A DNA stretch of 64,000 nt from a phage. Both the position numbers and the translations under genes were made by a program. Location of the stretch: the sequence record PQ724393.1; one strand, written 5' to 3'. The notes beneath the pieces were generated by a model. It saw nothing but the letters and a program-made list of their open reading frames with translations, ran no database searches and was not told where the DNA came from. Positions 29,309-36,669 of this stretch are shown piece by piece (position 1 is the first letter of the stretch; each line of letters opens with the position of its first letter).

Positions 29309-30268
29309 TTATTTTTCGAAAGGACGAATTAAATGATGGTTATCTTGGAAACGCTTGATGTAGTCGTTTTCACCTAAAGTCTTATACATATTCACTACAG
29401 CTTGGTAGTTTTCCCAGGCGTACTCGCGGAACCAACCTGAAGTGATTGAGGTACACACTTTCTCAAGAGCCATATAAAAACTTAATGATGGTGAAATATT
29501 GAAGTCATTAGGAACCTGTGAACGTTCTAGTGCCAGGACACAAGTTTCTTCATATACACCAGCCAGTTTAATAGCTTCGGGCAAAGCCTCGAACTTCTCA
29601 CGAGAGGTCATGACTTCAGAACCTTCCTTCATATAAAAGGTATATGCAGGGCGTCCAGCCAATGCTACTGCTTCATGAATAGAGTCATGGTCCAGCGTAT
29701 AAATGGTATCATTAAAGAACGATGATTTGTTTACGTCCAATTTAGGGTGAGAATAGCTCAACGTTTCTTTTTGACGTTGCAACATAATTTCCCGGAGTTC
29801 TTCGTTCAGGGTGATACCTTTATTACGAAGGTATTTGATGTGGGACATAGTTTTCAAGAAGAACGGATTATTCTTCAGGAAACGATGAGAGGTTTTGATA
29901 GCCAGACAGATATCAGGCGTTGCCCAATAGAAACCAGTAAGACGGTCCTTTTTAATATGATTTTCAGCATATTTCAGGAGACGATAACTTGAAGTGAAAT
30001 CTTCGTCTTGAAGCTCGCCAGTAATTTCTCGTACGTTAGTCAGAGCACGGACAATATAAGCTTCAAAATAGGTTTCTTTACCATTGTACATACATTTAAA
30101 GGCCTGGACATCAGGATTATCCACAGGAACATGAGCGCCGAACATCCGGGCTTTAAAGTGATTCCATGAGCCTTGGTCGGCAATGAAATCCCAATCAGAA
30201 TTTTCGATATGCTTACTTTCAATCAGACCAGCGTGGTGCAGTGCACGAGAACCAATAACTAGCATCAT
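29309..30268 (-). CDS. Hypothetical protein (319 aa) with possible nucleotidyltransferase-like N-terminus
   Basis: LVIGSRALHHAG...SDWDFIA loosely fits GS...DxD; weak. Confidence 0.5.
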   Translation of the reverse strand: MMLVIGSRALHHAGLIESKHIENSDWDFIADQGSWNHFKARMFGAHVPVDNPDVQAFKCMYNGKETYFEAYIVRALTNVREITGELQDEDFTSSYRLLKYAENHIKKDRLTGFYWATPDICLAIKTSHRFLKNNPFFLKTMSHIKYLRNKGITLNEELREIMLQRQKETLSYSHPKLDVNKSSFFNDTIYTLDHDSIHEAVALAGRPAYTFYMKEGSEVMTSREKFEALPEAIKLAGVYEETCVLALERSQVPNDFNISPSLSFYMALEKVCTSITSGWFREYAWENYQAVVNMYKTLGENDYIKRFQDNHHLIRPFEK

Positions 30269-30281
30269 AATATTTTCCTCA

Positions 30282-30449
30282 TTAATAAAGACGAGTTACT
30301 TCATATTTACCCAGTTCAGATTTTTTTGCTTCAATACGCGTTGCGGCTAGATTAGCAGCCTCTAGTGAAGAAAATTGGACCACTTGGGAAGTATTCTGCC
30401 TTACGCCACCTTGTGGGTGAGTAACAAAAACAATAAGAACATTATACAT
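30282..30449 (-). CDS. Hypothetical small protein (55 aa)
   Basis: ATG with strong SD GAGGAAAATATT; below ORF-track cutoff. Confidence 0.3.
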   Translation of the reverse strand: MYNVLIVFVTHPQGGVRQNTSQVVQFSSLEAANLAATRIEAKKSELGKYEVTRLY

Positions 30450-30470
30450 AATATTTTCCTCAGAGTAAAC

Positions 30471-30710
30471 TTAAATTTCAGCAACGTAATCGTTATGCAA
30501 TTCCCACATATCATCAGAATTATTCTTAATGATAGGAATTATCTCATTAGAGATTTCTTCTGCATAAGGGTCATTGATACAGTGGGCATCTTCAAAACGA
30601 ACACCGTAATCAGACTTCTTATAGGCAAAGCCATAAATCTTTTTAAACTTGGCACGACTAATTCGTACCGGCTCATCAGACTTATCAGACAATGGAGAGT
30701 AATACCACAT
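30471..30710 (-). CDS. Hypothetical protein (79 aa)
   Basis: ORF. Confidence 0.45.
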   Translation of the reverse strand: MWYYSPLSDKSDEPVRISRAKFKKIYGFAYKKSDYGVRFEDAHCINDPYAEEISNEIIPIIKNNSDDMWELHNDYVAEI

Positions 30711-30753
30711 ATGTTCTCCTCATGTTTGTGTAGGGTAATAGTAACATGATTTT

Positions 30754-31083
30754 CTAGAGTTGTACATCACTTCTGCAATATTCTAAAAATAATTTATCGT
30801 TGTCTACGGTATCCCAACGACGCCAAGATGGGTTCCAGACCAAAGCGTTGTCACCACAATCATTGAGCTTAAAATGGTCGTAGTACATAGCTATATGTCT
30901 GGTTTCGTCACCAGAGAACCCTAGTATAGGCTCACCATGAGTATGATACATATGATGGTGCATTGAGAGGTCGCATTTGTAAAACATCTCACGTTTACCA
31001 CGAATGAACAAGAAAGCTTGACCATTCATATAGAATTCTTTATCTGTTTTCAAAAGATATTTGAATACCGAATCTTTATGCAT
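30754..31083 (-). CDS. Hypothetical His-rich protein (109 aa)
   Basis: Start at ATG 31081-31083 with SD AGGAGGA; HHHMYHTH cluster. Confidence 0.45.
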   Translation of the reverse strand: MHKDSVFKYLLKTDKEFYMNGQAFLFIRGKREMFYKCDLSMHHHMYHTHGEPILGFSGDETRHIAMYYDHFKLNDCGDNALVWNPSWRRWDTVDNDKLFLEYCRSDVQL

Positions 31084-31113
31084 AAGTCCTCCTACCACAT
31101 CCTTGTGGTTAAA

Positions 31114-31341
31114 TTATTTTCCTAACGAAACACGAGTAGGTTTTTTACCAAAATAGTCTTCATAAGACCCATCTAAACGACCTGCTTTAGACCGACAATA
31201 TGAATCGTACTTTTTGTAATAAGTCATCTCGGTATTATAACGCGGGTGTCTATCAGCCATAATAATACTTAACGGCCAACCTTTGGCATAATCGCGAAGA
31301 CCATTTATTTTACGAATGTATCTTTTCTTTAATTTTAGCAT
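31114..31341 (-). CDS. Hypothetical basic protein (75 aa)
   Basis: ORF; start overlaps stop of paralog 1. Confidence 0.4.
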   Translation of the reverse strand: MLKLKKRYIRKINGLRDYAKGWPLSIIMADRHPRYNTEMTYYKKYDSYCRSKAGRLDGSYEDYFGKKPTRVSLGK

Positions 31342-31559
31342 GAGCTCGGATACCAGATTTTACCATCAGAACGAGCAACGAAGGTTCGGCCGGCTTCTTC
31401 GCCGTAACAAGAGCTATTCAGCCAATCTTCAAGACGAACTTCACCATCATAATCATCAAGCTCAACACCAAAATCTTGTGCAGAAGCCATATCTTTTACT
31501 TTCTTATACAGCGCAGCCAGTTCAAGAGCAGCTTTTTCTAATTCATTAATATCAGACAT
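31335..31559 (-). CDS. Small protein paralog 1 of 5 (C-terminal ...WYPSSC)
   Basis: 74 aa; N-terminal helix EKAALELAALYKK; shares C-terminal W-x-x-S-S-x-C with four upstream neighbours. Confidence 0.5.
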   Translation of the reverse strand: MSDINELEKAALELAALYKKVKDMASAQDFGVELDDYDGEVRLEDWLNSSCYGEEAGRTFVARSDGKIWYPSSC

Positions 31560-31568
31560 TTTATTTCC

Positions 31569-31799
31569 TTAGCAAGACATAGAGGAGTTAAACCAGAAAC
31601 CCTGGCCATCATTGATACCGTAATCACTGCGAATCCAGTCATATTCTTCGTATTCTTCGCTAGAAGCCGGAATATAACGCTGGAAACGGTCTGCGGCGTG
31701 TAAATTAAAAATTTCGCCGGTTTTATCGGCCAGCTGCTCACCTTCACAGATTAGTGCACGGATTTGGTCTTCGATTTCTTTAACAGTTTTAGAAGTCAT
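31569..31799 (-). CDS. Small protein paralog 2 of 5 (C-terminal ...FWFNSSMSC)
   Basis: 76 aa; TAAGG stop/SD junction to next gene. Confidence 0.5.
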   Translation of the reverse strand: MTSKTVKEIEDQIRALICEGEQLADKTGEIFNLHAADRFQRYIPASSEEYEEYDWIRSDYGINDGQGFWFNSSMSC

Positions 31800-31808
31800 T
31801 TTATTACC

Positions 31809-32006
31809 TTAGCATTCGTAAGAGGAGGACACCCAAGAGGTACCACTAATTGTAATACAACCATTATAAAGCGTGATATGACGTTCCAGGTCACGAACAC
31901 CGTCGATATAGATATCAGCTTCTTCGCGTTCTTCTTTACAAATCTGGATAACGTTTTCAATAGCTGCGGCTGCAGTACGGATTGCACAATCTAGTTCACG
32001 AGACAT
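31809..32006 (-). CDS. Small protein paralog 3 of 5 (C-terminal ...SWVSSSYEC)
   Basis: 65 aa. Confidence 0.5.
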   Translation of the reverse strand: MSRELDCAIRTAAAAIENVIQICKEEREEADIYIDGVRDLERHITLYNGCITISGTSWVSSSYEC

Positions 32007-32015
32007 AATAATTCC

Positions 32016-32297
32016 TTAACATTCAGAAGAAGAGGATACCCATCCACCATTTTCTAGGCTGGTAGTGTAATCATGTTGGTTTACAATAGCGTACTGAGCT
32101 TCACCGTATTCTTCCCAGTGGGCCAGGTCAGCTTTCAAGGCGCCAGGAGAATAATAGTCACCGCCCATACCGCGAGCAGGGTATATATTAAAATGAGTCT
32201 CATATTTGTTGGCAATTTCCTCGGCACGACGAATAGCTTTATGGATATCATTTACTGCAGCAGCCAGCTCTTTATTTTTACGGTAATCATTCATCAT
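32016..32297 (-). CDS. Small protein paralog 4 of 5 (C-terminal ...GWVSSSSEC)
   Basis: 93 aa. Confidence 0.5.
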   Translation of the reverse strand: MMNDYRKNKELAAAVNDIHKAIRRAEEIANKYETHFNIYPARGMGGDYYSPGALKADLAHWEEYGEAQYAIVNQHDYTTSLENGGWVSSSSEC

Positions 32298-32306
32298 AGC
32301 GTTTCC

Positions 32307-32597
32307 TTAGCACATTGCCGAAGAGGAGACCCAAGCACCAACTGTAACGACGCCATTTTCAACTTCACCACCATTGTTTTCAATTTCATCTTTAAACCAC
32401 TGGGAGCATTCATAACCAACAGGGTAGTATGTACGTCCTGAGCCATAATCACCTGTTCCGAATTGAATACCGTACTTATCGGCAATAGCTTCACATTTGG
32501 ATTCGATGGTATCCACTTTATTCAGAAGAGCATAGATAGCCTTTTCTGCAGATTTCTCGTCATTGTATTCAGGGATTTCAATTTCAATTTTATTCAT
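32307..32597 (-). CDS. Small protein paralog 5 of 5 (C-terminal ...AWVSSSAMC)
   Basis: 96 aa. Confidence 0.5.
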   Translation of the reverse strand: MNKIEIEIPEYNDEKSAEKAIYALLNKVDTIESKCEAIADKYGIQFGTGDYGSGRTYYPVGYECSQWFKDEIENNGGEVENGVVTVGAWVSSSAMC

Positions 32598-32947
32598 GAT
32601 TTACATTCCTTAATAAAGGTTTCAAGGTCATTACGTTTGGTTTGTTTTACATACTCATTATAATTAGCCATCTCTAAAGCATATCTCTTTTTACGTGGCT
32701 TGTTTATTTTATTAGTTTGGGCGATATCAAAGACCAATGGGATAAAGTATCCTATTAAAGCCGGAACCCAAATCCATGCGAGGCTCATATCTTCAAACGG
32801 ATGGCGAGGCATACCATTAATAATCCCGCCGACAAGAAATCCAATTATCCCTGCAACCATACTAGTAGCAATGCCGAGGAATAATGAAATAGAGATATCG
32901 TAATCTGCTAATGCGTAACCAGGGTCGGTTTTACTAGGCTTATACAT
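32594..32947 (-). CDS. Hypothetical membrane protein (117 aa)
   Basis: Start at ATG 32945-32947 (MYKPSK); two hydrophobic helices. Confidence 0.45.
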   Translation of the reverse strand: MYKPSKTDPGYALADYDISISLFLGIATSMVAGIIGFLVGGIINGMPRHPFEDMSLAWIWVPALIGYFIPLVFDIAQTNKINKPRKKRYALEMANYNEYVKQTKRNDLETFIKECKS

Positions 32948-36062: not shown

Positions 36063-36137
36063 TGGTATCCCGCCCTGGGATCGAACCAGGACCGCAAACT
36101 TAGAAGGATCGTATGCTATCCATTACACCAGCGGGAC
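36063..36137 (-). tRNA. tRNA-Arg (anticodon UCU)
   Basis: Minus-strand GTCCCGC...CCTTCTAAG...GGTTCGATCCCAGG-GCGGGAT-A-CCA; anticodon loop CUUCUAA, T-loop, encoded CCA. Confidence 0.75.
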
Positions 36138-36142
36138 ATAGT

Positions 36143-36219
36143 TGGTGACCCGGACCAGATTTGAACTGGTAACCTTTCCCTTATGAGGGGACTGCTGCTA
36201 ACCATTGAGCTACAGGGCC
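36143..36219 (-). tRNA. tRNA with CAU anticodon (Ile2-type or Met)
   Basis: GGCCCTG...anticodon loop CUCAUAA...AGTTCAAATCTGGT-CCGGGTC-A-CCA; T4 encodes a tRNA-Ile at the corresponding position. Confidence 0.7.
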
Positions 36220-36491: not shown

Positions 36492-36669
36492 AATACCTCA
36501 AATAAAATTAAGTAAAGTAAGTTTGATTAATAGACCTTGTCTATTATGAAAGGCTCTTTGAGGGAAGAACCTTTGGTAATAGAGGGTTACTTAATAATGT
36601 TAGAGTAATAATATCACATTACTCTTAAAGCATATTACTATTTTTAGGAATAGTCTGGTCAAATTTGAT

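Follow-up and report, generated by a model that had tools for sequence, protein, structure and literature searches.

Small phage proteins with a shared C-terminal Trp-x-x-Ser-Ser…Cys tail are linked to a gene for a predicted nucleotidyltransferase

We analysed a 64,000-nucleotide (nt) stretch of phage DNA (sequence record PQ724393.1; hereafter, the window), in which an earlier note had drawn attention to a tandem array of five small genes whose products all end in a common tail: Trp, two residues, Ser-Ser, and a final Cys that follows immediately or with two residues in between. We found that the tail family and an enzyme with Pfam domains DUF7277 and DUF7275, predicted to be a nucleotidyltransferase of the pol-β fold, make up a two-gene-family module with near-obligate linkage. 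The coupling of the small family to this MenT-like enzyme, encoded outside the coordinates covered by the earlier note, is new. The small family itself is already catalogued, without a name, as PHROG 899 and 4882; the window proteins are bona fide hidden Markov model (HMM) members of these and of DUF7275 and DUF7277, bins that are all functionally unannotated. Neither PHROG nor Pfam ties the two families together or records the tail, and a literature search gave no description of the motif strings, DUF7275, DUF7277, the PHROG numbers or the phage nucleotidyltransferase. The feature is no artefact and is not confined to the window phage.

Just downstream of the small genes, five very different phages each encode a protein of ~300–320 amino acids (aa) that carries DUF7277 and DUF7275 and belongs to PHROG 2141, as does the product of window open reading frame (ORF) 30268–29309. 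When viral contigs were anchored on the enzyme, a tail ORF was found in 75 of 80, and a match to the small-family HMM in 71 of 80. The tail ORFs lie essentially always on the same strand, no more than ~2.5 kb upstream, in one to six copies; one of the loci missed by the pattern carries a W-D-S-S-T-C tail. Conversely, among contigs found with canonical small proteins (n=39), the enzyme was downstream in 36, the other three stopping at a contig edge. After de-replication of the enzyme at 60% identity, a tail ORF lay between −3.5 and +3 kb in 36 of the 37 remaining lineages. Of all neighbours of the enzyme, the small family alone is widely shared (34 of 37 lineages versus 6 of 37 for the next family), and no third partner is conserved in the module. 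The pairing spans Dhakavirus, Mosigvirus, Karamvirus, Aeromonas Tulanevirus, Klebsiella Stephanstirmvirinae (six tail genes with the enzyme), Pseudomonas Otagovirus and jumbo contigs of >350 kb; in the Tulanevirus Aeromonas phage Aes012 the module has been relocated and sits beside nrdD.

This pattern bears on the possibility that the small proteins are independent effectors, acting in host takeover or anti-defence through binding of a metal or a host target by the tail, and that the enzyme is only a co-inherited neighbour in an early or middle transcription unit. The array does sit in a hyperplastic region rich in small accessory genes, its products are small and acidic, as many phage inhibitors are, and nearby tail ORFs are missing in some enzyme-bearing lineages. 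However, the linkage outlasts relocation of the module and its transfer among unrelated phage groups, and no other neighbour is co-conserved. Because such persistent linkage is hard to explain without a functional tie, we regard independent effectors as distinctly unlikely.

The array in the window is organized largely as the earlier note had described it. An ORF listing returned all five consecutive minus-strand genes at exactly the coordinates given (31335–32597; Table 1, numbered 5 to 1 from the upstream end). The shared C-terminal motif was confirmed by a census of all window ORFs of at least 30 aa (n=541), in which the pattern W..S[ST].{0,2}C ends five ORFs, these five only. The proposed Ala-rich N-terminal helix corresponds to a long helix predicted for residues 14–42 of the 96-aa protein, and the Ser-Ser codons are indeed AGC TCA in paralog 1, versus TCC TCT or TCT TCT in the other paralogs. 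The gene junctions had been described as a TGC-TAA running straight into GGA-AAT-AAA-ATG; all four do consist of TAA, 9 nt and ATG, but GGA-AAT-AAA is literal at only one of them, and paralog 4 ends in TGT-TAA. The four spacers are GGAAACGCT, GGAATTATT, GGTAATAAA and GGAAATAAA, and the junctions carry a Shine-Dalgarno-like TAAGGA/TAAGGT element. Translational coupling of the genes is plausible from these 9-nt TAAGGA junctions. The final stop of the array overlaps the ATG of the next gene (ATGCTAA). All five genes share a single reading frame, with TAA stops, a layout consistent with a tandem duplication in which the spacer was part of the duplicated unit. We saw the same in-frame layout in further Dhakavirus and Mosigvirus arrays (our loci L010 and L017). 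The ortholog of paralog 2 is unannotated in the RefSeq record of phage JS98 (NC_010105; L001, 6470–6680), where an intact ORF (69 aa; …FWFSSSMSC in L012) fills the gap between orf126 and orf127.

A shared ending could also arise at the nucleotide level, from a repeated DNA cassette that includes the stop codon, the ribosome-binding site and the initiation region. TAAGGA and the 9-nt spacer are common to the junctions, three of which contain a 38-nt direct repeat. The copies of this repeat, however, are merely 68–74% identical over the 38 nt, which argues against a DNA cassette. Moreover, paralog 1 uses other motif codons and has no such junction, the motif is also kept by homologs present in one copy and by phages whose junctions differ, and the ratio of nonsynonymous to synonymous substitution rates (dN/dS) is far below 1. 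Among Dhakavirus orthologs, dN/dS was 0.17, 0.20, 0.085, 0.25 and 0.08 for paralogs 5 to 1, respectively, and all five genes are under purifying selection. The constraint at the protein level that the earlier note had argued for is thus borne out by these values (0.08–0.25), by the differing codons of the paralogs and by retention of the tail at the C-terminal end in 137 of 148 inspected clusters from unrelated phages. The probability of a nucleotide-level artefact is practically nil, and this explanation is effectively refuted.

We compared the five proteins beyond the motif with a profile of 139 distant family members, the last ~10 residues being cut from both sides. Similarity beyond the tail (helix, F-x-F strand and Gly-rich Tyr loop) was found for the 96-, 93- and 76-aa paralogs (58.7, 55.2 and 41.6 bits, respectively). 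The earlier note, which a lack of similarity past the last ~8 residues would have refuted, is upheld by these three; the 65- and 74-aa paralogs gave no score with the tail removed. The 65-aa subtype aligned with canonical members in hhalign with 83.7% probability (E value 8e-6 over 59 columns with the tail, 1e-3 without it). The profile–profile link of the 74-aa subtype is weak, and its support comes mainly from the match to PHROG 899 (Table 1). By these comparisons, the 65- and 74-aa paralogs are divergent subtypes, weakly similar outside the tail; the array as a whole consists of paralogs that have diverged within a single phage-specific family.

When 1.84 billion representatives were searched exhaustively with an HMM, with clustering at 50% identity, this family grew to 167 clusters at E<1e-3, nearly all of 50–150 aa and with matches reaching the last residue. 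By tblastn, the family is present in 390 phage records (Escherichia, Aeromonas, Enterobacter, Klebsiella, Serratia, Pectobacterium and others), to which a canonical query adds phages of Providencia and Pseudomonas. As for the tail, of 139 sequences ending in Cys, 135 have Trp at −7, 137 Ser at −4 and 138 Ser at −3; the nearly invariant positions are A39, Y57, W89, S92, S93 and C96. Diverse members share a minimal architecture of N-terminal helix, β-hairpin and tail. Paralog 3 has no more than these, lacking the Gly-rich Tyr loop (A-Y-G-M-G-G-T-Y-Y-P) that canonical members add. The 74-aa subtype, also kept in other T4-like genera, adds an internal second motif copy, D-W-L-S-S-S-C-Y-G-E, seen in paralog 1 as DWLNSSCYGEE in addition to the terminal KIWYPSSC. 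Internal extra W-x-x-S-S motifs occur in 14 of 150 members, versus 1.35 expected from shuffling. The family is acidic, with a median net charge of −8 and a median isoelectric point of 4.46, and the terminal Cys is the sole Cys in 84 of 150.

The 96-aa protein was modelled with AlphaFold2 with a mean predicted local distance difference test (pLDDT) score of 90.2. A fold search of the PDB with this model found no match, MenA1 included, and a sequence-profile search of the PDB with the family returned designed helical proteins only. Scans of the five paralogs and 150 family members against Pfam, NCBIfam and PADLOC gave nothing meaningful. The family has no conserved Arg or His and hence no HEPN Rx4-6H motif. 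Arrays of up to six tail genes were also seen in non-T4 phages (KP13-26, L007, 3144–5312; L083; L121). Among their products, the versions of 139–159 aa are extended by an N-terminal domain and end, for instance, in AWCSSSMSC or DWDSSSMYC. One Klebsiella phage KP13-26 ORF ends in …GWISSSICW, one residue past the Cys. We had considered that the tail might be portable across unrelated scaffolds; this was withdrawn, as the 139–159-aa ORFs without an HMM match still share the helix–hairpin–tail core.

The enzyme family is larger, with 2,033 protein clusters and, by tblastn, 734 phage records. It is ~45% identical between Pseudomonas and E. coli phages, with a dN/dS of 0.06. The window protein passes the Pfam gathering thresholds of DUF7277 and DUF7275 (259 and 93.1 bits, respectively, against a cut-off of 27). 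The invariant residues of the family include G6-S7, D25-x-D27, E69, K125/S127/H128/R129, H174, D193-H194-D195-x-x-H198, E248-R249 and C272/S274/R281, among which are the marks of the pol-β superfamily: hG[GS], [DE]x[DE] and a third carboxylate on a β-α-β core. The best PDB matches of the fold were MenT1, TglT/MenT3 and MenT4, followed by ANT, LnuA, TM1012 and other pol-β nucleotidyltransferases. The partner is therefore predicted to be a pol-β-fold nucleotidyltransferase with an intact active-site signature. Its ~170 C-terminal residues, highly conserved, gave no convincing structural match; one guess, from their His/Asp-rich invariant residues, is that DUF7275 might hold an HD-type domain for removal of the modification. 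A profile match to RNase L (E value 0.44) was judged to be noise. We also considered that two invariant Cys of the enzyme co-vary with the tail Cys and rejected this, as C243 is variable (Y, M or L) in tail-linked lineages. C272 is near-invariant, and the V or I found in its place in three distant homologs without a tail ORF is suggestive (n=3).

The likeness to MenT suggests a different relation between the partners, in which the enzyme would be of the MenT/AbiEii type, extending tRNA 3′ ends or modifying RNA in some other way, and the acidic proteins would bind it through their long N-terminal helix and tail and block or tune it, as an antitoxin would. MenAT and AbiE systems share with the module the pol-β enzyme fold and, on the same strand, an upstream gene for a small helical protein. 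MenA1, the helical product (68 aa) of such an upstream gene, blocks the active sites of MenT1 (PMC10435456) and induces phosphorylation of the motif-I Thr (PMC11375011). S7 of the invariant G-S motif corresponds in position to the residue that MenT enzymes auto-phosphorylate. The small proteins carry a median charge of −8, as noted above, and the module is often near phage tRNA genes. However, the enzyme does not fall in DUF1814/AbiEii: Pfam gave nothing beyond DUF7275 and DUF7277 at E values up to 10, PADLOC gave no AbiE match, and the ~170 extra C-terminal residues (DUF7275) are a further difference. The partner differs as well, having an unmatched fold, one to six diverged copies per enzyme, often gene-separated, which is atypical of toxin–antitoxin pairs, and the invariant C-terminal W-x-x-S-S…C tail. 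Steric blocking needs no such Ser-Ser…Cys-COOH end, and several diverged copies that all keep it are left unexplained. MenAT and AbiE are found in bacterial chromosomes, whereas the module is found in virulent phages. We consider such a MenA-like, antitoxin-like regulation, with the paralogs providing graded or temporally staged control, rather unlikely; it is nevertheless the main rival to the reading that we prefer.

The preferred reading, whose chances we judge to be evenly balanced, is that the tail is the element that the enzyme recognises, by covalent modification or docking, and that it serves non-structural factors of host takeover or counter-defence. The tail would enter the active-site region of the enzyme, where its two invariant Ser hydroxyls, and possibly its terminal Cys, would be nucleotidylylated or phosphorylated. 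Alternatively, the terminal Cys and its carboxylate may complete a metal site, forming a metal-mediated clasp. One conserved enzyme would service the one to six variable-bodied small proteins of a phage, which would be produced early or mid infection and be non-structural. A more specific picture is tentative, possible rather than probable: that of a phage protein-tagging system in which a MenT-like enzyme modifies or metal-clasps a portable C-terminal tag on fast-diversifying arrays of small acidic effectors. If it were true, several effectors directed at different targets or defences of the host would be armed by one enzyme, and this in hundreds of large virulent phages.

We favour covalent modification or a metal clasp because pol-β-fold enzymes act on hydroxyl groups and MenT can transfer phosphate to Ser/Thr, because one enzyme with many variable proteins that share a terminal motif is the signature of a tag and its enzyme, and because the motif is sometimes duplicated. 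That the tail Cys is unsubstituted and necessarily terminal points to chemistry or to ligation of a metal and not simply to packing. GlnD, GlnE and MntA modify a hydroxyl group, that of Tyr. GlnD/PII, GlnE/glutamine synthetase and MntA/HepT are like the module in coupling a pol-β enzyme to a small protein with a short conserved acceptor element. Their acceptors, however, are loop tyrosines, whereas the putative acceptor here is a C-terminal Ser-Ser…Cys tail, and, in contrast to HepT, the small proteins of the module are without the HEPN motif. MenT enzymes can indeed phosphorylate an active-site Ser/Thr (PMC11375011).

Variable-bodied paralogs with one invariant terminal motif and one enzyme gene are also a feature of sortase/LPXTG and exosortase/PEP-CTERM systems and of the maturases of ribosomally synthesized and post-translationally modified peptides (RiPPs). 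The enzyme of the module, in contrast, is a nucleotidyltransferase and not a peptidase or RiPP maturase, and its small proteins are cytoplasmic and acidic, without a signal peptide or transmembrane anchor. Several precursor-like genes beside one conserved enzyme, and an invariant terminal peptide holding Ser and Cys, could still recall RiPPs, the tail being a core peptide that is modified, for example by Ser dehydration or Cys cross-linking, and released as a bioactive peptide. But the small proteins are predicted to be well-folded domains, tail included (pLDDT 90.2), the conserved neighbours include no protease, transporter or known RiPP maturase, and the terminal motif is constant while the body varies, the opposite of RiPP precursors, in which the core varies and the leader is conserved. 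RiPP-like precursors are thus very improbable.

Several observations weigh against recognition of the tail in the active site, and against a tight tie between the two genes. In the model of the 96-aa protein, W89 is placed in a β-strand and the final six residues reach a pLDDT of ~78; being predicted to belong to a folded domain, the tail may enter an active site less freely than a disordered tail would. Thr never stands for Ser at −4, a stricter requirement than that of most acceptor sites. Enzyme loci without a nearby tail ORF are those of one related lineage (L067, L068, L070 and L082) and of the T4-like L030, and the distant homologs of DUF7275 that Streptomyces, Gordonia and Vibrio phages encode had no nearby tail ORF either. 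Finally, in the window itself four unrelated small ORFs (~1 kb) stand between the array and the enzyme gene.

The distant Streptomyces, Gordonia and Vibrio proteins also differ from the enzyme family at E69, R129, H174, C272 and R281. Shorter homologs are found in two actinophages, Streptomyces phage Wakanda (L127, 3851–4597) and Gordonia phage Engineer (L128, 3809–4600); the neighbours are polynucleotide kinase and RNA ligase genes in Wakanda and a tRNA cluster in Engineer, and in both a conserved gene of ~98 aa follows the DUF7275 homolog. These contexts hint that the wider enzyme family may act on RNA or tRNA ends.

Experimental data were found for one phage only, the T4-like Yersinia phage phiR1-RT, in which we identified g125 as the enzyme and g126, g127 and g128 as the three tail-bearing small proteins. 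A screen in which 94 non-virion proteins without an assigned function were expressed in E. coli took in g126–g128 and not g125 (PMC6893735), in keeping with a non-structural role of the small proteins. The products of g126, g127 and g128 were non-toxic, with relative colony-forming units of 0.94, 0.69 and 1.08, respectively, against a cut-off of 0.4 (PMC6893735 supplement).

The window region is 98.5% identical to Escherichia phage fDHCT2 and ~89% to JS98, and by this similarity the phage is a JS98-like Dhakavirus of the T4-like Straboviridae. In JS98 the array is flanked by e/nudE/e.2 on one side and by e.6/e.8/tRNA on the other, that is, it lies in the e–tRNA hyperplastic region, whose genes all share one strand. 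On the coding strand of the window, no terminator-like site interrupts the run from the array to 29309. A candidate T4 middle-promoter-like site (Table 1) is situated 86 nt upstream of the first paralog ATG, within the preceding gene, and was found at seven of nine Dhakavirus loci. The pattern used ([AT][AT]TGCTT[TC]A, 11–13 nt, TAnnnT) has four matches in the window, on the coding strand only, versus 0.58 expected from shuffles; the other three are at 36634, 16510 and 3305 (minus strand). The four ORFs between array and enzyme gene have no tail motif and are outside the conserved module. Genes for tRNA-Arg(TCT) and tRNA-Met(CAT) lie at 36063–36219 (minus strand), ~3.5 kb upstream of the array and in the same direction.

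Table 1. Features of the array, the partner gene and their surroundings in the window (minus strand, (-))
Feature	Coordinates	Product or sequence	Basis or remark
Candidate T4 middle-promoter-like site	32657..32683 (-)	MotA box TATGCTTTA, 12 nt, TATAAT	consensus match only
Paralog 5	32307..32597 (-)	96 aa, …DYGSGRTYYP…, ends GAWVSSSAMC-COOH	ORF; PHROG 899, E value 9e-24; canonical member
Paralog 4	32016..32297 (-)	93 aa, …RGMGGDYYSPG…, ends GGWVSSSSEC-COOH	ORF; PHROG 899, E value 6e-20; canonical member
Paralog 3	31809..32006 (-)	65 aa, ends TSWVSSSYEC-COOH	ORF; PHROG 4882, E value 2e-36; minimal subtype
Paralog 2	31569..31799 (-)	76 aa, ends GFWFNSSMSC-COOH	ORF; PHROG 899, E value 5e-15; canonical-like
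Paralog 1	31335..31559 (-)	74 aa, ends KIWYPSSC-COOH	ORF; PHROG 899, E value 4e-10
Four small ORFs between array and enzyme gene	30282..31341 (-)	75, 114/109, 79 and 55 aa	PHROGs 7065 and 9796
Partner gene	29309..30268 (-)	319 aa, DUF7277+DUF7275, predicted pol-β-fold nucleotidyltransferase	~1 kb downstream of array

The earlier note had stated that no T4 protein family carries this C-terminal signature. This is literally correct: a scan of the whole T4 genome found no tail-bearing ORF and no homolog of the partner enzyme. In T4, e.2 adjoins e.3 directly. We considered e.3, e.4 and e.5 of T4 as homologs of the array and rejected them; e.3 and e.4 are membrane proteins that, by eye, resemble the upstream window ORF 32983–32594. 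A C-terminal …ECREY… stretch is common to T4 e.5 and window ORF 33476–32940, again by eye from the translations. Provided that these matches of e.3, e.4 and e.5 hold, the array and nucleotidyltransferase block would be an insertion at the T4 e.2–e.3 junction. T4 nrdC.3 (308 aa) and nrdC.11 were rejected as DUF7275 homologs, as neither gave an HMM signal; nrdC.11 (L134, 5936–6946) is annotated as a nucleotidyltransferase, and T4 thus has a different nucleotidyltransferase and no tail family.

In some public records the members of the module bear structural names. Small ORFs are labelled 'tail completion protein', 'major capsid protein' or 'prohead assembly scaffold protein' in MK295203, MW250787 and vB_KpnM-VAC36, and the nucleotidyltransferase is in some records also a 'prohead assembly scaffold protein'. 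None of our results supports these capsid, tail and scaffold labels, which look like errors of annotation transfer.

Both families, otherwise annotated as 'hypothetical', are conserved in jumbo-phage contigs and in numerous large virulent phages that infect Enterobacteria, Aeromonas, Acinetobacter or Pseudomonas. Viewed as a module, two anonymous DUF/PHROG bins become a testable enzyme–partner pair, with a predicted contact element and defined catalytic residues. Modification of the tail by the enzyme would make the tail a protein tag of a new type and put the MenT-like fold to a new use; were the small proteins instead to regulate a tRNA-modifying enzyme, the module would be a phage-borne relative of the toxin–antitoxin nucleotidyltransferases. 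Either outcome touches on host takeover and on candidates for phage therapy, as many JS98-, RB69- and phAPEC8-like phages carry the module.

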